Below the pieces are notes generated by a model. It searched no databases, was not told the origin of the DNA, and worked only from the letters and a program-made list of their open reading frames with translations. A stretch of 64,000 nucleotides of DNA. Origin: an uncultured delta proteobacterium. GTDB taxonomy: Bacteria > Desulfobacterota > Binatia > UBA9968. Position numbers and translations under genes: made by a program. Position 1 is the stretch's first letter; every line of letters begins with the position of its first letter. Shown here in pieces: positions 1-24,918 of the stretch. Location: positions 96,001-160,000 of the forward strand of contig CAVUZH010000016.1 of NCBI GenBank assembly GCA_963745835.1, in the 5' to 3' direction.

Positions 1-267
1 AATCGATGGTTTCGGCTGCATTTCTGCAACCGATGCGGAACAACCGTCATGGCAACCGTCGAACGCCGACCAAGCCGCCGGTTGATTATGGTCGGCACAC
101 TCGACGACCCCAACTGGGTCAAGTTAGATCGACACATCTGGACGCGTTCTGCCCAACACTGGATGGTTTACCCGCAAGATATGAAGCGCTTCGAGAAAAG
201 CGCCGGGATAGGCAAGGCCTTGAGTGGCGAAGGGAAATCGGTTCCGAGCGGGCTCACACGTCGGTGA
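1..267 (+). CDS. GFA (glutathione-dependent formaldehyde-activating / CENP-V) family protein, 5'-truncated by window edge
   Basis: Frame 1 from base 1 reads NRWFRLHFCNRCGTTV...VGTLDDPNW...HIWTRSAQHW, containing the FCxxCGT, GTLDD and HIWTRS motifs typical of GFA proteins. Confidence 0.8.
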   Translation, partial: NRWFRLHFCNRCGTTVMATVERRPSRRLIMVGTLDDPNWVKLDRHIWTRSAQHWMVYPQDMKRFEKSAGIGKALSGEGKSVPSGLTRR

Positions 268-438
268 ACTTGAGGCAGGCCCGGCATTTTGCGCTTCAGG
301 CCGGTCACATGCTGTGATATCAGTGGCGGCAGAGCTTAGTCGCCGCTCGTTTCAGAGTGCGGCATGGGCGGCCCTGGGGTCGCGGCGCGAGCATCTCCTC
401 GCGCAAAGATTCACGGCTCCACCCCCTTGGAGGAACTC

Positions 439-1491
439 ATGGCGACATTTCCGGATTTCACGCTAGCCGCCATCCAGGCGGCGCCTGTTTACTTCGACCG
501 CGACGCTTCGACCGAAAAGGCCTGCAGACTGATTGAGCAAGCGGCGCGGAAGGGAGCCACGCTGGCGGCGTTTAGCGAGACCTGGCTGCCGGGCTATCCG
601 TTTTTTCATAACTCTTCACGCCGCACCGAAGCTGCGGCGGACTATCTGGCAAACGCCGTGGAAATTCCTAGCCCGACCACGGAACGCCTGTGCGAAGCTG
701 CCCATGATGTCGGGATTGACGTAGTCGTCGGCATCGTCGAGCTCGATAAACGGACACGCGGTACCGTCTATTGCACCATGCTGTTCATCAGCCGCGAAGG
801 CAAGATCCTCGGCCGGCATCGCAAGCTCAAGCCGACCGCTACAGAGCGCGCGGTTTGGGGAGAAGGTGACGGAGTCGGTCTCACTGTTTACGAGCGCCCT
901 TACGGCCGCATCAGCGGCTTGGCCTGCTGGGAGCATATGATGCTGCTCCCCGGATATACCCTGATGGCTCAGGGCACTCAGATTCACATAGCAACATGGC
1001 CCTATCCCCGCACTCTATTTGATTTCGGCGGTCTACTCCTGTCGCGCGCTTTCGCACTCCAGGGGAGTTGTTACGTGATGGCGGTTTGTTCCCTGTTGAG
1101 ACCGGACGATGTCCCGGAAGCTTATCGTGAACTGACAACCGAGCGTGATCGAAACAAGGCCGAAAGCGGCAGTTGCATCATCGCGCCGGGCGGAGAAGTA
1201 GTCGCAGCCGCTTCGGCCAACGAAGAAACGATTCTGACGGCGACGGTGTCGCTAGAAGCGGTACTCCGCTCCAAGGCTCGACTCGACGTTGGAGGCCACT
1301 ACTCTCGCCCGGATGTCTTGAAGCTGTTGGTGAATCGCGGCCCACTTGAGCGGGTCTTAGACATGAGTCATGCCGATTCCACAAACCATGGTGCAGTAGA
1401 TGTCCATACCAAGGACGCTTTCGGCGTGATCGAACAAGAAACTGTGGGAGAAGTCTCAATGGGCCACGCTCAATCTCCGAAGTCGAGATGA
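439..1491 (+). CDS. Nitrilase (carbon-nitrogen hydrolase family)
   Basis: E-K-C triad motifs FSETWLPGYP, RHRKLKPT, LACWEH and C-terminal DVGGHYSRPDV; start moved to ATG 439 after GGAGG RBS. Confidence 0.9.
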   Translation: MATFPDFTLAAIQAAPVYFDRDASTEKACRLIEQAARKGATLAAFSETWLPGYPFFHNSSRRTEAAADYLANAVEIPSPTTERLCEAAHDVGIDVVVGIVELDKRTRGTVYCTMLFISREGKILGRHRKLKPTATERAVWGEGDGVGLTVYERPYGRISGLACWEHMMLLPGYTLMAQGTQIHIATWPYPRTLFDFGGLLLSRAFALQGSCYVMAVCSLLRPDDVPEAYRELTTERDRNKAESGSCIIAPGGEVVAAASANEETILTATVSLEAVLRSKARLDVGGHYSRPDVLKLLVNRGPLERVLDMSHADSTNHGAVDVHTKDAFGVIEQETVGEVSMGHAQSPKSR

Positions 1492-1558
1492 TAGAACCTC
1501 ACAGGGGATTCGCTTAGTTCGTCCTCTCTCTGTGCGGGCAGAGATTTGAAGGCTACCT

Positions 1559-1745
1559 ACTTCTTCGGCGCCATCGAGATCGACGGCTTCATCGACAAAG
1601 ACGAATTCAAAAAGCAGATCGACGAATGGATTCGAATCCTTCGCAGCACCAACCCGCTCCCGGCACCAACGGCCCGGTCCTCCGGGCGACCCGGAGCGCG
1701 CAGCCGAAGCGATCCGGAGCAAAGAAGCAGTCCCGCTGCTCAAAA
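1559..1745 (+). pseudogene. 3'-end fragment of Ldh_2 family oxidoreductase, copy 1 (frameshifted)
   Basis: FFGAIEIDGFIDKDEFKKQIDEWIR; 1577-1634 is identical over 58 nt to 4936-4993; small deletions downstream shift the PGDPE...RSKE segment out of frame. Confidence 0.85.
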
Positions 1746-2058
1746 GAGACGCAACCCAAAAATCACCCTCTAAAATAACCCTTTGGTGCTTCATTCCTTC
1801 AGATCCCTGAGCTGCTCACCTACATTCGACGACTGGAACTGTCCAACTATTCTTAGTGATCGTTTACTTTGAACGGCCGCTTGTCGGCGACCGGTTTGAA
1901 TATCTGAAACGATTCTAACGCGATGCCGGTTGCCTCGGGACTGGAAAATATCCAGTTCGTGAAAGAATTTCCGCAAGCCGAGGTGTATACTCATACTAGC
2001 TGGAGTGGAGGAGTTAAAAATTTCTCAGTTCGATTATTGAAATTCGGGGAGAATCGAC

Positions 2059-3438
2059 ATGACGAAGATCTCCGCTAACGTGCTCGAAGCCGTCGGTAAC
2101 ACTCCGGTCGTCCGTCTCAACCATGTTACCGCCGGAATTTCTGCGACGGTCTGTGTGAAACTCGAGGCGTCCAATCCGGGAAGGAGCGTTAAGGACAGAA
2201 TCGCGCTCGCGGTGGTCGAGGATGCGGAGAGGAAGGGATTGCTCAAGCCGGGAGGCACGATCGTCGAGCCCACTTCGGGGAACATGGGCGTGGCGCTGGC
2301 GATTGTCGCTGCAGTGAAGGGTTACAAGTGTATCTTTACGATCCCGGACAAAATGAGCATCGAAAAAATTCGCCGGTTGCGAGCTTTCGGCGCGGAGGTC
2401 GTCGTGACTCCCACGGCGGTGCCGCCGGAATCCTCCCAGTCCTACTATTCGGTTGCCAAACGTCTCGCCGACGAGATCCCGGGTGCCTATATGCCCATGC
2501 AGTACGATAATCTCGCGAACCGGGAGGCTCATTACGCCTCCACGGGTCCGGAGATCTGGGAGCAGACCGACGGCAAGATCACACACTTTGTCGCCGGGAT
2601 CGGCACCGCAGGGACAATCTCGGGAACTGCCAAATACCTGAAAGAAAAAAATCCGCAGTGCACGGTTATCGGAGTCGATCCCGAGGGATCGATCCTCGCG
2701 AAGGCTTTTAAACGCGAGAAGTGGTCATGGAGCGACTCACACCCTTACAAGGTCGAAGGGATTGGCGAGGACTTTGTGCCGAAGAACCTGCTCATCGAAT
2801 ACATCGACGACGTGGTAACGGTTTCCGACCGCGACTCGTTTCTGATGGGCAGGCGGCTTACGCGGGAGGAAGGCCTCTTCTGCGGGGGATCTTCCGGTTC
2901 GGCCGTTGCGGGCGCGCTTGAATACGCTCGGGAGCGGCGGCTCGGCAAGGACAACCTCGTCGTCGTCTTACTTCCCGACGCGGGGGAAATTTATCTTTCG
3001 AAGATGTATTCCGATGAATGGATGAGGCAAAACCAGTTTCTTGGAAAAAGCGCCCGGGTGGGCGACATTCTCCAATCGAAGCGGCGAAAGCTCCCCGAGC
3101 TCCTGTCGGTCGAGACAACAGCCGTCGTGCGCGATGCGATCACGACCATGAACCGATTCGGTGTCTCGCAACTCCCGGTGTTCGATAAGGGGAATCTTAT
3201 CGGGTCGCTATGCGAGAGCGTACTCTTTCAGAGATCTATGGAGAGTCCCGAGGTGATGGATCTTACCGTTGGAGCTCTGCTCGAGCCGCCGTTTCCCACG
3301 ATCGGGCCGGACGAAGACGTCTATGAGGTCGTGCAGCTCCTCAAGTCTTCCCCCGCTGTTCTCGTCCGCGACGCGGAGAAGTACCAGGGAATCGTGACAC
3401 GATTCGACGTCGTCGGTCACATAGGTGGACAGTCCTGA
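2059..3438 (+). CDS. cbs: Cystathionine beta-synthase (PLP fold II plus tandem CBS domains)
   Basis: KLEASNPGRSVKDRIA, EPTSGN, GTAGT, YKVEGIGEDF motifs and a C-terminal CBS pair; coupled to a gamma-lyase gene. Confidence 0.88.
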   Translation: MTKISANVLEAVGNTPVVRLNHVTAGISATVCVKLEASNPGRSVKDRIALAVVEDAERKGLLKPGGTIVEPTSGNMGVALAIVAAVKGYKCIFTIPDKMSIEKIRRLRAFGAEVVVTPTAVPPESSQSYYSVAKRLADEIPGAYMPMQYDNLANREAHYASTGPEIWEQTDGKITHFVAGIGTAGTISGTAKYLKEKNPQCTVIGVDPEGSILAKAFKREKWSWSDSHPYKVEGIGEDFVPKNLLIEYIDDVVTVSDRDSFLMGRRLTREEGLFCGGSSGSAVAGALEYARERRLGKDNLVVVLLPDAGEIYLSKMYSDEWMRQNQFLGKSARVGDILQSKRRKLPELLSVETTAVVRDAITTMNRFGVSQLPVFDKGNLIGSLCESVLFQRSMESPEVMDLTVGALLEPPFPTIGPDEDVYEVVQLLKSSPAVLVRDAEKYQGIVTRFDVVGHIGGQS

Positions 3439-4604
3439 TGGCACGAAAAACGGGCGGTGAGTCCAGGCGATTTGCTACGCGCGCGATCCACGCCGGACAA
3501 GAACCGGAACCCGCAACCGGAGCGATCACCGTTCCGATCTATCAGACCAGCACTTTCGCGCAGAGCGCGCCCGGCATTCACAAAGGCTACGACTACTCGA
3601 GGACCGACAATCCGACGCGCACCGCCCTCCAGACCGCGCTCGCGAGCTTGGAGTCGGCCGAATCCTGCCTCGCCTTCTCTTCCGGTATGGGCGCCGCGAC
3701 TACCGCGATGCTCCTGCTCAAAAGGGGCGATCACGTGGTCTCCTCGCGCGACGTTTACGGCGGCACCTACCGGCTCTTCAGGGCCGTGTTGCAAAATTTC
3801 GGGCTGACGTTTTCCTTCGTCGAAACTTCAAACGTCAGAGAAGTCGAGCGCGCCATGACTCGGCGCACCCGCCTTGTTTGGATCGAGTCGCCGACCAACC
3901 CGCTGCTCCGGATTACCGACATCAAGACAGCGGCGAAAATCGCCCACCGCCACGGCGCGCTCTGCCTGGTCGACAACACCTTCGCGTCGCCGGTTTTTCA
4001 GCGACCGCTCGAGCTCGGCGCCGATCTCGCCCTCCACTCGACGACAAAGTACCTGGCGGGACACGCGGACGTCGTCGGGGGAGCGATCTGTCTCAATGAA
4101 CCCTCACTCTATAAGCGGCTCAAGTTCCTGCAAAACGCCGCCGGCGCGACGCCTTCGCCCTTCGATTGCTTTCTCACACTTCGAGGGATAAAGACCCTCG
4201 CCCTGCGCATGCGGGAGCATGAAAAGAACGCGATGCAGATCGCGCAGTTCCTGCAAGATCATGCGCGCGTACGACGGGTCTACTATCCCGGACTCGAAAA
4301 TCATCCTGGCCATGATGTCGCGGCTGCCCAAATGGACGGCTTCAGCGGCATCGTTTCGTTTGAGGTAAAGGGAGGACTCGCGCAAGCGCGCCGCGTTCTG
4401 GCGCGCTTGCGTCTCTTCAAGATCGCCGAAAGTCTCGGCGGCGTCGAGTCGCTCGTCGAGTTGCCCGCAGTCATGACCCATGCCTCGATCCCCAAACCAG
4501 AGCGCAAGAAGGCGGGACTCGATGACGGACTGATCCGTCTGTCAGTGGGAATTGAGGACCTACAGGATCTTCTTGAGGATCTGAACCGAGGACTGGACCG
4601 GTAA
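3438..4604 (+). CDS. Cystathionine gamma-lyase/synthase (Cys/Met metabolism PLP family)
   Basis: PIYQTSTF, YSRTDNPT, ESPTNP, DNTF, HSTTKYLAGH, AESLGGVESL; start overlaps cbs stop. Confidence 0.9.
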   Translation: MARKTGGESRRFATRAIHAGQEPEPATGAITVPIYQTSTFAQSAPGIHKGYDYSRTDNPTRTALQTALASLESAESCLAFSSGMGAATTAMLLLKRGDHVVSSRDVYGGTYRLFRAVLQNFGLTFSFVETSNVREVERAMTRRTRLVWIESPTNPLLRITDIKTAAKIAHRHGALCLVDNTFASPVFQRPLELGADLALHSTTKYLAGHADVVGGAICLNEPSLYKRLKFLQNAAGATPSPFDCFLTLRGIKTLALRMREHEKNAMQIAQFLQDHARVRRVYYPGLENHPGHDVAAAQMDGFSGIVSFEVKGGLAQARRVLARLRLFKIAESLGGVESLVELPAVMTHASIPKPERKKAGLDDGLIRLSVGIEDLQDLLEDLNRGLDR

Positions 4605-4886
4605 GACGGAGTTCGTGGGCAATAACTCACGCCAGTCCGCACCCGTCCCAAATTGCATCGCGCTTGCTCCGAACGTTGAACGACTGAAATGAGTTGGACC
4701 TATAAGCGACTTGAACGGCTGGTGCTGCAGAATATATGAATCCAGAGTCCTGACTCCGCAATTTTTGTTGGGCGTCTTTTTCAGCTGTACTCTATAAAGA
4801 CAAAATTGCCTTACAAGCAAATTAAGCGATAATAGAATGCAACCGCCCAGAGAGTGATCGTGAGCCATGGCAATAAAGTAATGTGA

Positions 4887-5198
4887 GCGGTTCGCAGCGT
4901 CGGCAAAGGCATCGGCCATTTCTTCGGCGCCATGCAGATCGACGGCTTCATCGACAAAGACGAATTCAAAAAGCAGATCGACGAATGGATTCGGGTTTTT
5001 CGCAACACCAAACCCGCTCCCGACAGCAGCGGCACGCTGATCCCCGGCGATCCCGAGAGAGAAGCCGAGGCGATTCGAAGCAAAGAGGGTATTCCGCTGT
5101 TGAAACCCGTCATGGATGATTTGCTGGAGATAGCAAAGAAGACCGGGATACCGTTTAAGTTGGAAAAGGGAAGGCTTGCCGTTAAAAAGAACCCATAG
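4887..5198 (+). pseudogene. 3'-end fragment of Ldh_2 family oxidoreductase, copy 2 (longest, in frame)
   Basis: AVRSVGKGIGHFFGAMQIDGFIDKDEFKKQIDEWIRVFRNTKPAP...LIPGDPERE...GIPL; in-frame TGA at 4884-4886 upstream, so no N-terminal domain. Confidence 0.88.
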
Positions 5199-5589
5199 AA
5201 ATAATTCAAGGAGCAGGTCAATGCCTTACAATGTCAAAGGCCGCGGCCGAATCCTTTACAAAGGATCTCTTCGGCACACTCAGCTACATTTCCGGTCACG
5301 GCGGCCGATTTCTGTGCAAGACAACGGTGACCAGCGGACCGGCGAAGAATCAATCCGCGGAACTGATTCAGCACGAACGGTCATACAGGATTGCGCTTTC
5401 AACCGAACTCGAATGCTGGTATGGAATTTTCCAGGTCGTGAGCGAGCGGTGAGAAACATGGCAAGAGCGTGCAGCCGAAGACAAATGTCTGCGGTATCCA
5501 GCAAAAGATTCTTCTCCTTCAAGCAGATTCTGTGCTCGCGGTTTCTACTCTAGAGTTCCGATTCTCAGAACCGAGAAAGAAAAACAACA

Positions 5590-6627
5590 ATGGAAGCGCA
5601 GAAACACGAATGCATCGGAATTGTCGCTCTGGCTTCGGTCCTGATAATTCTATCGACTGCCGCGATCGCCTCATCTCAGGATGGAAGGCTCGCCGAGGCG
5701 CGACGCGAGGGCAAGGTCGTCTGGTACACGGGAGCCGCTCTGATGACTGCCGAGCGTGTCGCCAGACTCTTTGAACAGGCTCATCCCGATATCAAAGTGG
5801 AAGTTCATCGCTCAGGCTCTGAGCGGATTCTCCAGCGTCTCATGCAAGAGGCCACCGCCGGCATCAAAAACGCCGATGTTTTTAATTCTTCCGATGCAGG
5901 GCACTATGTGCTCTTAAAGAAGAAGGGCATGCTAGCTAAACACACGCCGGTGGGTGCGGAGCGTTTTCCTGACGGTTTTCGCGACCCGGACGGCACCGTT
6001 TTTGGCTGGCGCGCATTCTTAATCGTCATGTCGTACAACTCCAAACTGTTGCCCGCTGGAGAGGCGCCCAAGACATGGAAGGATCTGCTCGATCCGAAAT
6101 GGAAGGGAAAGCTGGTTACCGCTCATCCCAGCTACAGCGGCAGTATCGCAAGCTATATGCTGGCGCTGTTGAATATTTACGGATGGGATTATTTCAAACA
6201 ATTGGCACAGAACAAACCGCATCTGACCCAATCGGTGCATGATCCGGCACAACTGGTCGCCGCGGGAGAGCGCATCGTGGGGGCCAACGGCGCGGATTAT
6301 TTTCTTTATTCGGAGAGAAAAAAGGGTAACCCAATTGGCATCGTCTATCCGCAGGATGGCGCTCCGCTGATTGTTTCGCCGTCGGCGATCACAAGCTTTT
6401 CTCTTCGCCCGTCCGCCGCCAGGCTGTTTACAGACTTCATTTTCACTAAAGAGGTGCAACAGTTCTTAGCCGACAGCGAAGCACTGTATGTTCCTCATGC
6501 CGAGGTCACCTATGCCTCGGACAGAGCGAAACTTTCCGAACTGAAGATCTTGACGGTGGACCCCGAGGAACTCGAACGGCGCACCGAGGAGATCAAGAAG
6601 CGGTTTGTTGAATTCTTCGGCGCGTAA
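5590..6627 (+). CDS. ABC transporter extracellular solute-binding protein (Fe3+/polyamine/thiamine-type cluster)
   Basis: Signal peptide, AEARREGKVVWYT, PKTWKDLLDPKWKGK, IVYPQDG. Confidence 0.85.
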   Translation: MEAQKHECIGIVALASVLIILSTAAIASSQDGRLAEARREGKVVWYTGAALMTAERVARLFEQAHPDIKVEVHRSGSERILQRLMQEATAGIKNADVFNSSDAGHYVLLKKKGMLAKHTPVGAERFPDGFRDPDGTVFGWRAFLIVMSYNSKLLPAGEAPKTWKDLLDPKWKGKLVTAHPSYSGSIASYMLALLNIYGWDYFKQLAQNKPHLTQSVHDPAQLVAAGERIVGANGADYFLYSERKKGNPIGIVYPQDGAPLIVSPSAITSFSLRPSAARLFTDFIFTKEVQQFLADSEALYVPHAEVTYASDRAKLSELKILTVDPEELERRTEEIKKRFVEFFGA

Positions 6628-6825
6628 GCAAGAAAGAGCATGCCCATCATCGTCACCATTGCCTAAGAACGAGTTGAGCTCCTACCCTCGGGCAATGCGC
6701 GAGGCTCAAACCAGCGTGTTAGACGTTACAAAAGGAGAGGATGATATTAGCTGGAGGCGGATTCGATCAGCACGTCATCTCGCTGCGCAGACAGAGAAAG
6801 GCTCGACCTTCGAACATATTGAAAT

Positions 6826-7062
6826 GAAAGCTTTATCGAAAACTCGAGTTCCAAAAAACAGATGGATGAATGGATTCGCATCTTTCGCAACACCAAACCC
6901 GCTCCCGACAACAGCGGTCCGCTGATCCCCGGCGATCCCGAGCGAGAAGCCGAGGCGATTCGCAGCAAAGAAGGTATTCCACTCTTAAAACCAGTCGTGG
7001 ACGATTTGTTGGAGATTGCGGAGAAAACAGCGATACCGTTTGAGATCAGCCGGCTGATATGA
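6826..7062 (+). pseudogene. 3'-end fragment of Ldh_2 family oxidoreductase, copy 3
   Basis: KKQMDEWIRIFRNTKPAPDNSGPLIPGDPEREAEAIRSKEGIPLLKPVVDDLLEIA, nearly identical protein to copy 2; decayed 5' part from about 6826. Confidence 0.88.
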
Positions 7063-7097
7063 TTCGGCCGATCAGCCTAACTTAAAATGGAGGAGCT

Positions 7098-7409
7098 ATG
7101 GTGACAGCATTCGTTCAATTCAAGATACCTGCGCCTCTGAGCCGGGAGCAAGCCAAAGAGGTATTTATGAGCACCGCGCCGAAGTACCAACAGGCACCAG
7201 GATTGATTCGCAAGTACTATCTCCTCTCCGAAGATGGTGGCACGGCCGGTGGTGTGTACTTATGGCGATCACGAGAGGATGCCGAGAGTCTCTATACGGA
7301 GGAATGGAAGAACTTCGTCAAAGAAAAATATGGCGCTGAACCGACGATTGTCTATTTTCAGACTCCGGTTGTCGTCGACAATCTTACAAAGGAGATTATC
7401 AGAGATTAG
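7098..7409 (+). CDS. YdhR-like putative monooxygenase (dimeric alpha-beta barrel)
   Basis: PGLIRKYYLLSEDGGTAGGVYLW motif; GGAGGAG RBS. Confidence 0.8.
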   Translation: MVTAFVQFKIPAPLSREQAKEVFMSTAPKYQQAPGLIRKYYLLSEDGGTAGGVYLWRSREDAESLYTEEWKNFVKEKYGAEPTIVYFQTPVVVDNLTKEIIRD

Positions 7410-7453
7410 CCGTTTACAGCCCGGGTGGGACGTAGCGTCTGACAGTGGGAACA

Positions 7454-7541
7454 GATTCAAAAACAAAGACGAGGTCCGGCACAAGCTGTGACCCGATCCA
7501 CGCGATCCGAGAAGGAGCTGACGCCGTTCGGAGCAAAGAAG
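7454..7541 (+). pseudogene. Heavily decayed Ldh_2 3'-end fragment, copy 4
   Basis: gattcaaaaacaaagacgag and gatccacgcgatccgagaaggagctgacgccgttcggagcaaagaag align by eye with gaattcaaaaagcagatcgacg and gatccccggcgatcccgagcgagaagccgaggcgattcgcagcaaagaag of the other copies. Confidence 0.55.
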
Positions 7542-7569
7542 ACCCCTCGAGGAACTCTTGGTAGACGCT

Positions 7570-7815
7570 TTATTCTTCACTGTCGATGATAAAAGACCGC
7601 AGCGTTTCATAGACATCGCGCCGATGACCGACTAGGAGTACTTGACTGTCATTTCAGCGTCGTTGCGACGGTAAACGATCGGTATCTCTTTGCCTTCAAC
7701 GATCGATAGCCCTCCAGCTCTCCGGTTAATTCCGAACCGGACTCAGGATTGACCGAAAGCTCGTCATTGGAAGTGCGAGACAAATCGTTTCACGTCCGCA
7801 CCGAATGATAGCTGA
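7570..7815 (-). pseudogene. RelE/ParE family toxin remnant
   Basis: Minus strand across two frameshifts reads DELSVNPESGSELTGELEGYRSLKAKRYR/IVYRRNDAEMTV/xVLLVGHRRDVYETLRSFIIDSEE*; absent from the ORF track. Confidence 0.7.
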
Positions 7816-8085
7816 TGGCGATCGATGCGGACGCTAGAACCGGTCTTCCTTCTCCATTCTCCCCACCGCTCTGTCCTCGACTAAGTCTTCCGCTTGGGAC
7901 GGCAATCTTCTCGTTCTTCGGCACCGAACAGCCGGATGACAGTACATCTAAAAGCAACTGCCGCAACTTTTTTGCTCATCATATGTTTTCAACTTCTCTT
8001 AAGCCCTTCATCTTCCCGCCCGTGAGTGGGATAATCAGACAACTTCGAAGATGCAGCTGGGTTCAAGTCTGCTCTTTCTCATTCG

Positions 8086-9360
8086 ATGCGATTAAATTTT
8101 TCCGCTTCATCGCCGCTATGGCGCTCACTGCGCCATCGCAATTACCGGCTCTATCTTACCGGCCAGCTGGTCTCGGTCTGTGGAACCTGGATGCAGCAGG
8201 TGGCGCTGAGTTGGCTGGTCTATCGCCTTACCGGATCGGCGACCTTGCTCGGCATCGTCGGCTTTGCATCGCAAATCCCGATCTTGGTTTTGGGCCCAAT
8301 CGGCGGCGTAATCAACGATCGCTACTCCACTCACCGGGTCGCCATATGGACGCAATGCGCGGCCTTGGCTCAAGCGCTGCTGCTCGCATTGCTGGCCCTG
8401 ACCGGTTGGATACAGCCAGTCCATATAATCCTGTTGGGAATCGCGCTGGGAGTCGTCTATGCGTTCGATATGCCCGCGCGCCAAGCTTTGGTGCATCGAT
8501 TAGTCGATACAGAAGACTTGGCCAATGCGGTAGCGCTTAATTCTTCGATGATCAACGCGGCGCGAATTGTCGGACCCGCGCTTGCCGGGCTGGTCGTCGC
8601 CAGGTTCGGCGAAGGCATCTGTTTCGTTATCAACGCGGCGAGTTATGTAGCGACCATTGTGGCATTACTCAAGATGAAATTCGCCGAGCCGCCGCGTCGC
8701 GACTCGACCGTAACCTCCATCAGTCGCTCGTTGATTGAAGGTTACCAGTACACGATGGCAACCACGCCGATACGCGATCTGCTGATTCTATTGGGCGTGG
8801 TCGGCGTTATGGGCATGCCCTATATGACACTGATGCCGGTGTTTGCGGCGCAAGTCCATGGGAGCGGCGCGGATACCCTCGGGATTATGTTCGGAGCGGT
8901 CGGTCTTGGCGCGCTCACCGGCGCGCTCTTTCTCGCTCAAAGAAAAAACATCATCGGACTTGGCCGGGTGATTGTCTTCGCCACCCTGGGATTCGGCGTG
9001 GGACTCGTTTGTTTCACGGTATCGCAGATGTTTTGGCTGTCACTGCTGCTTCTTGTCGGAGTGGGCTATGGCTGGATGGTCTTGATCGCCGCGAGCAACA
9101 CGGTGCTGCAAACCCTTGCCGATAACCAGATGCGCGGCAGGGTGATGAGCCTGTTCTCGATGATGCTCGTCGGCATGGCGCCATTCGGCAGCTTGCTGGC
9201 AGGATGGGCCGCTGACCAGGTGGGCGCTCCCATGGTGGTCGCAATCGGCGGCGGCTTTTGCGCCATCGCCGGAATCGTTTTCGCCAGGCGATTACCCGGG
9301 CTACGGGAGGCGGCAAAGCCGATCTTGGCCGCCCGCGGGATTATTCTAGAAACAAAGTGA
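8086..9360 (+). CDS. MFS transporter
   Basis: About 12 hydrophobic segments; SLRHRNYRLY...GTWMQQVA, DMPARQA, NAVALNS, MRGRVMSL. Confidence 0.9.
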   Translation: MRLNFSASSPLWRSLRHRNYRLYLTGQLVSVCGTWMQQVALSWLVYRLTGSATLLGIVGFASQIPILVLGPIGGVINDRYSTHRVAIWTQCAALAQALLLALLALTGWIQPVHIILLGIALGVVYAFDMPARQALVHRLVDTEDLANAVALNSSMINAARIVGPALAGLVVARFGEGICFVINAASYVATIVALLKMKFAEPPRRDSTVTSISRSLIEGYQYTMATTPIRDLLILLGVVGVMGMPYMTLMPVFAAQVHGSGADTLGIMFGAVGLGALTGALFLAQRKNIIGLGRVIVFATLGFGVGLVCFTVSQMFWLSLLLLVGVGYGWMVLIAASNTVLQTLADNQMRGRVMSLFSMMLVGMAPFGSLLAGWAADQVGAPMVVAIGGGFCAIAGIVFARRLPGLREAAKPILAARGIILETK

Positions 9361-21986: not shown

Positions 21987-22043
21987 GGAGTGATGGAGTA
22001 TTGGAGTGATGCGAGCCCAATACTCCACCACTCCAATACTCCA
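21987..22043. repeat. 8-nt periodic hairpin (GGAGT(G/A)(A/T)T)x3 with inverted arm
   Basis: ggagtgatggagtattggagtgat ... ccaatactccaccactccaatactcca. Confidence 0.75.
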
Positions 22044-22053
22044 GAGGCAATTT

Positions 22054-22756
22054 ATGGCTGATGTAACTCTTATTATCGACGGCAAGTCCGTCACTGTTCC
22101 TGACGGCACGACGATCCTCAAGGCGGCGGAAAAAGCCGGGCGGCAAATTCCCACTATATGCTACCACGATCATTGCACGGCCAACGGGCTTTGCCGCATC
22201 TGCGTGGTCGAAGTCGACGGCGTAAAGCCGCTTGTCCCTGCCTGTCTGAGCCGGGCGAGCGAAGGCATGAAGGTCACTACCTCGAGCACGCGCGCCGAGC
22301 GCAGCCGCCGGACAATCCTGGAGATGCTCGCGTCGGCCGTGGATCTTTCTGAGGCGCCGGAGATCCAAAAGTTTATCGACTGCTTATCGCGCCGACACCG
22401 CGCGCTTTCCCGATGCCGAGCGGCGCGAGTATCCGGTGCTCGATGACAACCCGATGTATCTCCGCGACTACTCCAAATGCATCCTGTGCTGGCGCTGCGT
22501 TCAGGTGTGTGCCGACGATGCGCAGTTTACCTACGCGATCAACTTCAAAGGGCGCGGTTTTGACACCGGCATCGGCACCTTCTTTGACAAGCCGATGCCT
22601 GAAACAACCTGCGTATTTTGCGGCCAGTGCGTCGGCGTCTGCCCCACCGGCGCGCTCAAGCCCAAGCGCGAGTCGCTGCTCGAGCAGGGCCTTTCGTTGG
22701 ATGAAATCATGCAGGCGACCAGGGGCGGAAAGAAACGCCGGAGGAAGTCACCATGA
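22054..22756 (+). CDS. NuoG/FdsA N-terminal-like Fe-S subunit (2Fe-2S plus 2x4Fe-4S); one +1 frameshift near 22381
   Basis: IPTICY...[10 protein letters not shown]...PAC, then after removing one base [22 protein letters not shown]...[23 protein letters not shown]. Confidence 0.82.
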
Positions 22757-24918
22757 TTACACCGGATCGGATCGTCCCGACCACCTGCCCCTACTGCGGC
22801 GTGGGATGCAATCTGGAGCTGCACATCAAAGACGATTTCGTTTACAAAGTGACCTCGCCGTTTGACGCGGTCGTGAATCACGGCAACCTGTGCGTCAAAG
22901 GACGCTTCGGTTACGATTTTGTTTACAACAAGGACCGGATGACCACGCCGCTCATTCGCAAGACTGCGCAGGAGCCCGGGAGCGCGCACCCAGGCCTTCG
23001 ACCGCGACCAGTGGCGCGAGGTATCGTGGGACGAGGCCCTCGATTATACCACTGAGCGGCTGGTCGAGATTTACCAGCGGGATGGCGCCGATGCGATGGC
23101 GGTCTACTGCTGCGCCAAGGCAACCAACGAAGACAACTATCTCCTGCAAAAGCTGTTTCGCGCGCTGTTCCGCAGCAATAACGTCGATCACTGCACCCGA
23201 TTGTGCCATGCGGGCTCGGTGGTGGCGCTGCAAATGGCGCTCGGCTCCTCCGGCGATGAGCAACACCGCCGCCGAAGTCATTCACAGCGACGTTTTTCTC
23301 GTTACCGGCTCCAACACCGCCGAGACCCATCCGATCATTGCGCTGCAAATGAAAGCGGCGGTGGCCAACCACGGCGCCAAGCTCATCGTCGTCGATCCGC
23401 GACGAGTTGAGATGGTCAACTGGGCCGCGCTCTGGCTGCCGGAGAAGCCCGGCACCGACGTACCGCTCTTTTCCGCGATGGCGCATGTCATCATCAAGGA
23501 AGGACTTTATAACCGCGATTTCATCGAACGGCGCACCGAAGGCTTCGCAGAGTTCGTTAGGTCAATGGAAAAATTCACCCCCGAGTACGCCGAATCGATT
23601 TCCGGCGTGGACCGCAATCTCATCGTCGAAGCCGCCCGGATGTATGCGACGGCAAAGAACGCGGCGATCTATTGGGCGCTGGGCATTCCCGAGCATTCGC
23701 ACGGAACCGACAACGCGATGTCGCTGATTCATCTCGCGCTGCTCACCGGCCATATCGGCCGCCAAGGGCACCGGCCTCAATCCCTTGCGCGGGCAGAACA
23801 ACGTGCAGGGTGCATCGGATTCCGGCGCCATGCCATGGCACTATCCCGGTTATCAGAGAGTCGACGACGAGGCGGCCGCAAGTAAATTTGAGCACGCTTG
23901 GAACAGCGAGCCCGGTAGCTTAAACCGCAAGCTGGGACTGACGACCACAGAAATCATGAGCGCGGTGGGACCAGGCGGCGTGCGCGCTCTTCACATCATG
24001 GGCGAGAATCCGATGATGTCCGAGCCCAACCTGAACCACACGCGCCACAAGATGGAACAATTGGAGTTCCTGGTGGCGCAGGACTTGTTCATCAATGAGT
24101 CCGGCGCGTATGCCGACGTCTTTTTGCCGGCGGCTTCATGGGCGGAGAAGGAAGGGACTTTTACCAACACGGACCGGCGCGTCCAGCGCGTGCGCAAGGC
24201 GCTGGAGCCGCGCGGCCAATCCCGATCCGATTGGCAGATCATCTGTGATCTTGCTGAGCGCATTGAAAAGAAGCTCGGCCGCCCGCAGACAGCCTTTTGG
24301 GCATACAAGAGTCCCGCCGAAGTGCTCGAAGAGATGGGACGTGTGGTTCCTGAATACGCCGGAGTGAAATATCGGCGCATCGAAAATCAGGGCTTACAGA
24401 CGCCGGTGTGGGATGACGATCATCCCGGCACTCCCTATCTATTCGCCGAGACTTTCCCAAGCGGCAAGGGTAAGTTCCACCCGCTTGAGTACGTGCCGTC
24501 TGTGGAAATGCCGGATGACGAATACCCGTTCATCCTCACCACCGGACGCCTGCTCGAGCACTGGCACGGCGGCACGCTCACGCGCCATTCGAAGCTCGAC
24601 GAGCTTTATCCGGAGGCGCGCATTGAGATCAATCCTGCGGATGCTGCCCGCCTCAGGATCGAAGATGGACAGACGGTGCGGGTCTCGTCGCGGCGCGGTT
24701 CCATCGTTCTGCGCGCTTGGGTGACACAGCGGGCGACTGTGGGTGTGGTCTTCATCCCTATGCATTTCGCCGAGGCTGCCGCCAATCTGCTCACCATCGA
24801 CACCCTGGATCCCGTAGCTAAGATTCCCGAATACAAAGCCTGCGCGGTGCGCGTCGTACCCGCTACGGAAGACCAATTAGTCAGGCCCGAGGGGAAAGTT
24901 CAAAGAGGTAGATACTAA
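22753..24918 (+). CDS. fdhF: Formate dehydrogenase alpha (Mo/W-bisPGD) subunit, Cys-type; three +1 frameshifts near 22981, 23252 and 23766
   Basis: [58 protein letters not shown] spread over successive frames. Confidence 0.85.

Follow-up and report, generated by a model that had tools for sequence, protein, structure and literature searches.

The window analyzed here is a stretch of 64,000 nucleotides (nt; positions 96001-160000 of contig C16 of genome G000), the left part of which carries fragments of the 3' end of a gene of the Ldh_2 family, separated by genes unrelated to it. The intact Ldh_2 gene lies 3.3 kb to the left of the window, at C16:91571-92671 (window coordinates -4429 to -3329), in the same orientation as the fragments. 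Its presence there had been set beforehand as a test of the original prediction, which regarded the fragments as the traces of repeated acquisition of DNA anchored on the 3' end of this gene. The product has 366 aa and is full length, covering positions 2-332 of the 333 positions of the Pfam profile PF02615 with a score of 409 bits against a curated cut-off of 38.8, while the translations of the fragments match this profile at positions 264-332 only. Positions within the gene are counted on its 1101-nt coding sequence (CDS).

Repeat finding and the listing of open reading frames (ORFs) placed co-oriented repeats at 1561-1751, 4920-5159 and 6805-7044 of the window, with short matches at 7451-7542. 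Three fragments, all on the plus strand, are robust. Fragment f1 (1558-1764; 87% nt identity to the intact gene) carries two frameshifts and lacks the last ~60 nt. Fragment f2 (4893-5198; 85% nt identity) shows Ldh_2 homology over 4893-5165 and has an open frame that runs on to 5198, with a C-terminal tail unlike that of the gene. Fragment f3 (6805-7062; Pfam part 6826-7047, ORF end 7062) is decayed to about 60% identity over the first ~55 nt, the remainder being 79% identical to the gene. A possible fourth, strongly decayed fragment (7451-7542, plus strand) is marginal: its best local alignment score against the tail of the gene is 23, compared with 17.7 +/- 2.1 in shuffled sequences, and 10 of 300 shuffles reach 23. 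In the close relative G006, a clear fragment stands at the corresponding position behind ydhR. Of the four copies originally counted, copies 1-3 are robust and copy 4 is marginal. The other features ascribed to the copies were borne out, namely the 58-nt identical run of copies 1 and 2 (exact, at 1577 and 4936), the decay of copy 1 by indels, and the chiefly synonymous differences between copies 2 and 3. The fragments had also been expected not to be dispersed over the genome, and genome-wide blastn and tblastn searches of G000 found fragments of the 3' end of the gene at this locus only; the other matches were a paralogue on C18 (42% identity) and two weak ones at chance level. The paralogue (C18:64617-65658) is matched in two overlapping frames, which points to a frameshift or sequencing error.

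The cargo between the fragments can be divided into cassettes. Cassette 1 begins left of the window, behind the intact Ldh_2 gene, and contains, in this order, a reversed HepT-like toxin gene and a truncated MNT gene directly 3' of the intact gene, a reversed regulator gene (Trans_reg_C/hydrolase), a cupin gene, a GFA-family gene whose 3' end lies in the window (1-267, plus strand; Pfam) and, as last gene before f1, a nitrilase (CN_hydrolase; 364-1491, plus strand; Pfam E 4e-48). Cassette 2 consists of a cystathionine beta-synthase-like gene with PALP and CBS domains (2059-3438, plus strand; Pfam) and a gene for a pyridoxal-phosphate lyase of Cys/Met metabolism (Cys_Met_Meta_PP, cystathionine gamma-lyase-like; 3438-4604, plus strand; E 2e-155). 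Between this pair and f2, positions 4777-4892 hold a remnant of the upstream region of an AbiEi antitoxin gene, recognized by homology to G034, where the homologous sequence precedes a fragment and the AbiE genes are still there (window 4777-5162 versus L038 4311-4668, 73% identity). Two overlapping sigma-70-like promoter matches (4806-4838, plus strand) lie in this remnant and are directed into f2 and the following gene. Cassette 3 carries an ABC-type solute-binding protein gene (5590-6627, plus strand; 98.8% aa identity in G001). Behind f3 follows a ydhR-family gene (7098-7409, plus strand; Pfam), which in G006 stands directly 3' of the intact Ldh_2 gene (window 6830-7418 versus L045 10878-11465, 89%); the tail of the intact gene of G006 resembles f3 of G000. 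An MFS_3 transporter gene (8086-9360, plus strand; 97% aa identity in G006) borders the variable region on the right and is conserved there within the genus, and the rest of the window consists of ordinary chromosomal genes. The names first given to the cargo stand for the nitrilase, the CBS-type PALP protein, the lyase, the solute-binding protein and YdhR; a supposed RelE remnant (7649-7783, minus strand) has no Pfam match even at E<=1 and was dropped.

The same architecture is seen again in 12 genome loci and on 34 of the 80 listed metagenome contigs with the conserved stretch of the gene described below. Among 61 genomes (G000 and 60 relatives, the unpublished G012 and G018 entering this tally only), six carry co-oriented tail fragments of this orthologue: G000, G001, G003, G005, G006 and G034. 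A set of 80 loci on genome contigs contained nine with more than one match, seven of them arrays (L045, L046, L048, L050, L052, L066 and L074) and two split intact genes. The related records are filed as Candidatus Binatia, uncultured delta proteobacterium or Syntrophobacter, and orthologues from other phyla in the same set have no fragments within flanks of up to 10 kb. The metagenome scan for the conserved stretch listed 80 loci, 35 of which have a fragment that is not due to a contig end; subtraction of one split intact gene leaves 34. Relatives had been expected not to carry identical cargo, and the cargo indeed differs among them. G000 and G001 have the distal array in common (f2, binding protein, f3 and ydhR; 95.3% identity over 2185 nt) and differ in the part next to the gene, yet f1 is more decayed than f2 and f3.

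The most common cargo beside the intact gene and between the fragments is a toxin-antitoxin or defense module, the types found being HepT/MNT, HEPN/nucleotidyltransferase, AbiEii/AbiEi, HicAB, Fic, an MqsA-like antitoxin, BrnT and the R subunit of a type I restriction system. The toxin-antitoxin genes are opposite in strand to Ldh_2 in 26 of the 27 loci with such a gene in the array, as read from the Pfam tables; these loci are not independent, several of them sharing cassettes, and by type the count is six of seven reversed. The exception is the metagenome contig L196, where a co-oriented BrnT toxin gene separates an Ldh_2 gene from a tail fragment (2188-2304) on its upstream side. Metabolic cargo is mostly on the same strand as Ldh_2. 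Turnover of cargo inside cassettes has left remnants of the AbiEi upstream region ahead of f2 and of hicB in G006. An origin of the cargo as native neighbors of Ldh_2 in a donor was considered and rejected: genes for nitrilase, CBS, lyase, cupin, GFA and the regulator were not found near Ldh_2 in about 117 genome loci.

The 5' limit was mapped, with end points good to a few nt, for 50 candidate fragments with at least 200 nt upstream; two of these are split intact genes, which leaves 48. With reference to a motif at nt 853 of the CDS, 42 of them start at -52 to +13, at 24 distinct positions. Two of the remaining fragments are longer (-122 and -71) and four are shorter (+74 to +127), at least one of the shorter limits being a secondary 36-nt deletion (f1 of G001 compared with f1 of G005). 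The limits are ragged also when fragments are compared directly with each other, an ATG at +12 of the motif is kept in 44 of the 48, and the sequence directly upstream of the limit differs by cassette type. The limits represent neither a single att site nor free scatter. The variable 5' breakpoints without a fixed att site that had been predicted are thus present as 24 distinct positions, but the variation is confined to a zone of 65 nt.

Comparison of 57 non-redundant intact orthologues (1596 pairs) shows that conservation of the gene is highest at nt 811-930. The four 30-nt windows of this stretch have a mean pairwise identity of 0.85, 0.88, 0.92 and 0.83, while windows elsewhere have 0.31-0.86. 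For the longest exact run between two alleles, the median length is 32 nt, and this run covers the centers of the three adjacent windows in nt 811-900 in 13%, 18% and 26% of the pairs, all other windows reaching 6% or less. The limits of the fragments coincide with the edge of this most conserved stretch, and each fragment is thus made up of the best available recombination anchor together with the rest of the gene. Two other causes of the common limit were tried and rejected. The zone is GC-rich, which could favor microhomology, but several other parts of the gene are GC-rich as well; an internal promoter was looked for by a consensus scan only, which gave no sigma-70-like match inside the fragments.

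The tails themselves are strongly diverged from each other at synonymous sites. The ratio of nonsynonymous to synonymous divergence (dN/dS) is 0.09 for the gene and f2 (dS 0.82), 0.12 for the gene and f3 (dS 0.97) and 0.09 for f2 and f3 (dS 0.60), while orthologues of different genera differ by a dS of 0.85-1.3. Divergence between the copies (dS 0.60-0.97) is as large as between genera, from which it follows that each tail diverged within a working gene of a distinct lineage. Between the intact genes of G000 and G006, identity is 95.3% in the first 809 nt and 83.6% in the last 292; dS is 0.15 over nt 31-804 and 1.02 over nt 865-1092, and this jump means that close relatives have exchanged the tail of the working gene. 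The intact gene is full length and possesses a working replacement 3' end with a history unlike that of its 5' part. Each tail is of foreign origin and comes from a functional allele; the claim that every copy derives from a different functional allele fits both the dN/dS values of 0.09-0.12 at dS 0.6-1.0 and the decoupled 5' and 3' histories of the intact gene.

The array is a mosaic. Identity drops along the repeat, from 96-100% in the first ~100 nt among the genes and full-length fragments of the genus to a cassette-specific sequence in the last ~100 nt, where f2 of G000 goes with f2 of G001 (95%) and the gene of G006 with f3 of G001 (93%). Between G000 and G001, the f3 orthologues agree to 96% in the decayed 5' part and to only 87% and 81% where they are still like the other copies, a pattern as would be expected from conversion by other copies wherever homology remains. 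Gene conversion among the copies is ongoing. The toxin-antitoxin cargo is more alike across genera than the core gene: the HepT and MNT DNA beside the gene of G000 is 91.8% and 91.5% identical to the cassettes of L050, whereas the 5' parts of the Ldh_2 genes are only 77% identical.

The array is without a known recombinase or hairpin site. Neither integrase nor transposase had been visible in the window at first reading, and Pfam scans found none among the nine window ORFs scanned and 50 further window ORFs of at least 110 aa. PF00589 has no match in C16 from 84 to 160 kb, the nearest being at C16:15910, and no tyrosine or serine recombinase was found by Pfam in the array ORFs of the 12 genome and 34 metagenome loci. 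IS21 and Mutator transposases adjoin two truncated fragments, on L144 and L147. The repeat DNA has no attC-like fold on either strand (z from -1.16 to +0.27 versus shuffles), and Rfam gave no match in the 20-kb locus. A hotspot without attC sites had been proposed, in agreement with a repeat that has no unusual fold and is coding sequence with a dN/dS of about 0.1. An IS110 element (DEDD transposase; C16:89930-91430) between a phytase-like gene and Ldh_2 was considered as recombinase of the array and rejected: it is missing in G006, and contigs of all four runs compared join across it as an empty site, so that it is strain-specific and its presence incidental.

We interpret the locus as a recombination-driven accretion array that grew by serial displacement of 3' ends through homology-anchored recombination, and put the probability of this reading at roughly 0.55. 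The intact Ldh_2 gene would repeatedly gain a new 3' end along with the foreign DNA that follows it, the old end being pushed downstream as a silent fragment. The portable recombination site would be ordinary coding sequence, namely the ~100-nt conserved stretch (nt ~811-930 of 1101) and the rest of the tail. Host homologous recombination, presumably dependent on RecA, between two repeats would first release a circle with one repeat and the cargo; after transfer, or within the same cell, a single crossover in the conserved stretch of a resident copy would then insert the circle. Unequal crossover and gene conversion among the copies would subsequently reshuffle and partly homogenize the array, and the reversed toxin-antitoxin modules probably stabilize cassettes against loss. 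The first junction between cargo and fragment of each cassette type may have arisen by end joining, given the four Ku genes. G000 has RecA, a ComEC-like gene and Ku-family genes at C22:325601, C5:115981, C3:1268750 and C14:200248, which makes both the homologous and the end-joining steps plausible; four Ku genes are unusually many, any Ku being present in only one of 14 control genomes. The anchoring of repeated acquisition on the 3' end of Ldh_2, as originally predicted, is supported on each point on which it could have failed: the intact gene is in place, the fragments occur at this locus only, the cargo differs among relatives, and the junctions are real, as set out below.

Several observations weigh against this interpretation. 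The conservation of the stretch may stem either from protein and codon constraint or from constant exchange, in which case the stretch would be a result of the exchange and not its cause. The limits, confined to 65 nt, lie closer together than would be expected of purely random illegitimate joining. Homologous recombination cannot by itself join a new cargo to a fragment for the first time, and at least six toxin-antitoxin types abut fragments directly. Of the three clear fragments, f1 is damaged most, although as the one nearest to the gene it should be the youngest displaced end; this means that insertion occurs also at internal repeats or that decay is erratic. The nitrilase and the CBS/lyase pair stand beside Ldh_2 in no genome locus examined, and the metagenome contigs that join them to a fragment (the nitrilase block on L206, the CBS-lyase pair on L184) possibly come from the same population. 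The missing integrase is weak evidence on the metagenome contigs, many of which are only 1-6 kb long. No excision or deletion joints or circles were found among the listed joints of the assembled contigs of four runs, which drop rare forms. One weak joint (L006 8128 to 13575) was disregarded, having 20 letters on the shorter side.

Among the alternatives, a single ancient duplication of the tail, inherited vertically and kept alike by gene conversion, with cargo brought in by ordinary insertions and growth by unequal crossover alone, without circles or transfer, is improbable. The evident gene conversion, the distal array common to G000 and G001 and the remnants of cargo turnover (the AbiEi upstream region before f2, hicB in G006) would all suit it. 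One ancestral junction predicts, however, a shared flank, whereas the sequence upstream of the limit is specific to the cassette; the tails differ by a dS of 0.45-1.0 and more even inside one genus; the HepT/MNT cassette is far more alike across genera than the core gene; and the own tail of the intact gene has been replaced between close relatives.

A site-specific recombinase or target-selecting protein that acts in trans, recognizes the coding motif near nt 853 and cuts nearby, in the manner of integrons or of the e14/icd system discussed below, is disfavored and judged improbable. It would account for limits clustered in 65 nt of a 1101-nt gene, for diverse cargo directly abutting the fragments and for the reversal of the toxin-antitoxin modules in 26 of 27 loci. 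It would also fit a 39%-identical paralogue in G034 (contig C67; L042 1457-1708 and 4033-5058, minus strand), where a 535-nt direct repeat, made up of the last 297 nt of the gene and 237 nt downstream with 91% identity, starts about 45 nt upstream of the same 18-nt motif and brackets about 2 kb with a helix-turn-helix gene, a weak DprA-like match and unknown ORFs. Such an enzyme should, however, leave one limit and not 24, and the gradual drop of identity along the repeat is as from spread crossovers. By eye, the 90 nt that precede the limits show no motif shared between cassette types; an integrase, a hairpin and an Rfam match are missing in the searches given above; and the orthologues from other phyla share the motif, yet have no fragments in the flanks covered.

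Retention of the fragments for a function, either as small proteins read from the native Met289 or as expression signals for the downstream cargo, is very unlikely. The low dN/dS, the open frames of f2 and f3 from an ATG and the widely kept ATG at +12 would be in its favor, but a low dN/dS is equally expected if the divergence accrued in a working gene, no sigma-70-like promoter was found by consensus scan in any of the fragments, and frameshifts or truncations affect f1 of G000, f2 and f3 of G001, f1 of G005, f1 of G003 and f3 of L050. An assembly artefact in the form of a strain chimera, suggested by the 25 contigs and 9.33% estimated contamination of the metagenome-assembled genome G000 and by short-read contigs that break at the fragments, is excluded for practical purposes: among 20 listed runs from 10 studies that contain part of window positions 1-9000, the contigs of two runs from two other studies (X6 and X7) reproduce four junctions (gene/cassette 1, cassette 1/f1, f1/CBS gene and lyase gene/f2) with 0-5 mismatches and break only within repeats, the cargo/fragment junctions recur on L206 and L184, and the architecture is found again in many assemblies.

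Growth of an array at the end of a gene, which had been put forward as an integron-like accretion, is supported but not without precedent, as it fits the 'C-terminal displacement' model proposed for rhs genes and for effector-immunity arrays of type VI secretion systems (PMC2935791, PMC5361080). In rhs loci, Jackson et al. 2009 (PMC2935791) propose a two-step homologous recombination via a circular intermediate, in which the circle carries one conserved piece, a tip and the intervening genes, and a single crossover shunts the old tip downstream. The Ldh_2 array resembles this system in the row of dissociated 3' tips that follows the intact gene in the same orientation, each tip with a conserved upstream piece and its own genes, in the decoupled histories of 5' core and tip, in the lack of a dedicated recombinase and in the proposed route, homologous recombination with a circle, limited by sequence identity. 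It differs in that the anchor is a complete Ldh_2-family enzyme and not a polymorphic toxin, that the tips are homologous and functionally equivalent C-termini and not unrelated toxin domains, that the cargo comprises toxin-antitoxin, defense and metabolic genes in place of cognate immunity genes, and that the limits fall within 65 nt, whereas rhs fragments are of clearly variable length. For the immunity gene arrays of the type VI secretion system of Vibrio cholerae, Kirchberger et al. 2017 (PMC5361080) describe homology-facilitated illegitimate recombination with a conserved stretch as anchor, and note the parallel to integrons and the lack of an integrase. Successive insertion beside a conserved gene moves older modules downstream there also, with horizontally acquired modules and no integrase; in contrast to the Ldh_2 array, the displaced unit is an effector and the retained immunity gene is under obvious selection, while here every insertion duplicates the tail of the anchor gene itself and the cargo has no relation to this gene.

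With integrons the locus shares a one-directional array of small modules with a repeated element, cargo that is variable at the anchor and shared distally, and frequent toxin-antitoxin modules. Unlike in integrons, there is no IntI, attI or folded attC, the repeated element is coding sequence of about 290 nt, and the junctions are not fixed. The element e14 and phage 21 insert into icd of Escherichia coli and restore the gene with a diverged tail that differs mainly at synonymous sites, the native tail being left at the far end; elements of this type carry an integrase gene, and their recombination takes place at a short core of identical sequence. The inserted DNA at Ldh_2 likewise provides a working replacement 3' end with mainly synonymous differences, but an integrase and a short identical core at one fixed position were not found in the arrays examined.

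Among the papers listed on 'C-terminal displacement', every bacterial case concerns, by title and abstract, rhs or type VI secretion toxins, and none of the papers found on toxin-antitoxin modules, integration hotspots, direct repeats, homologous recombination and gene remnants in combination describes, again by title and abstract, such an array. In the papers found, displacement arrays are reported only from polymorphic toxin loci (rhs, type VI secretion and contact-dependent inhibition); new here is a displacement array on a metabolic gene with unrelated cargo. In toxin loci, diversifying selection on the toxin tip explains arrays of displaced ends. Interchangeable tails and an unrelated payload on a metabolic gene suggest a general route of gene gain and not a peculiarity of toxin genes, with a testable rule for the position of hotspots, namely the part of a gene in which the longest exact matches between diverged alleles lie. 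The array also links toxin-antitoxin modules to the persistence of repeat-flanked insertions, and as the locus is common in soil metagenomes, it can be tracked in natural populations.

On a wider scale it is conceivable, and offered here as a tentative suggestion, that this lineage runs an integrase-free counterpart of the integron, in which short, hyper-conserved stretches of ordinary chromosomal genes would dock circular cassettes with toxin-antitoxin, defense and metabolic genes that circulate between genera and are inserted, excised and reshuffled by host recombination, Ldh_2 being the clearest case. Gene gain by partial 3' duplicates may be genome-wide. Comparison of G000 with itself revealed other genes with a 3' end repeated 0.6-12 kb downstream at 83-99% identity and with unrelated genes between the copies, at C8:106726/114236, C8:113886/125896, C22:80329/85472, C18:216929/221256, C24:321649/322654/323869, C20:82313/84878, C13:564739/565379 and C19:125580/128868; no integrase was found by Pfam in the ORFs scanned between such copies. 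Among the genes concerned are those for a DAHP synthase on C8 (469-nt repeat, 95% identity), a zinc alcohol dehydrogenase on C22 (358 nt, 88%), an M20 peptidase on C18 (187 nt, 90%) and a 455-aa protein on C24 with two fragments (161 and 141 nt, 91% and 96%), a DUF3500 gene on C20 (288 nt, 99.3%) and a gene for a TIR protein.

The duplicated tail of the DUF3500 gene was tried as a model of a clean insertion and rejected, since G005 has the same genes without the fragment, which indicates a different history. Beside this fragment, at C20:82161-82304, lies a repeated element of ~180 nt with copies of 89-91% identity at C2:10320-10501 and in G004 and G005. G002 (contig C202; L044 6097-6423, minus strand) has an orphan tail fragment of the paralogue type, situated between Mrp/NADH-antiporter genes and a cyclophilin gene, and an intact copy of that paralogue was not found in G002 with the query used. 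Further to the right in the window, at 22006-24915 (plus strand), a formate-dehydrogenase-like molybdopterin oxidoreductase is distributed over three ORFs (Fer2_4; Molybdopterin; Molybdopterin and Molydop_binding), a split for which frameshifts, an in-frame stop codon read as selenocysteine or assembly errors are possible causes.

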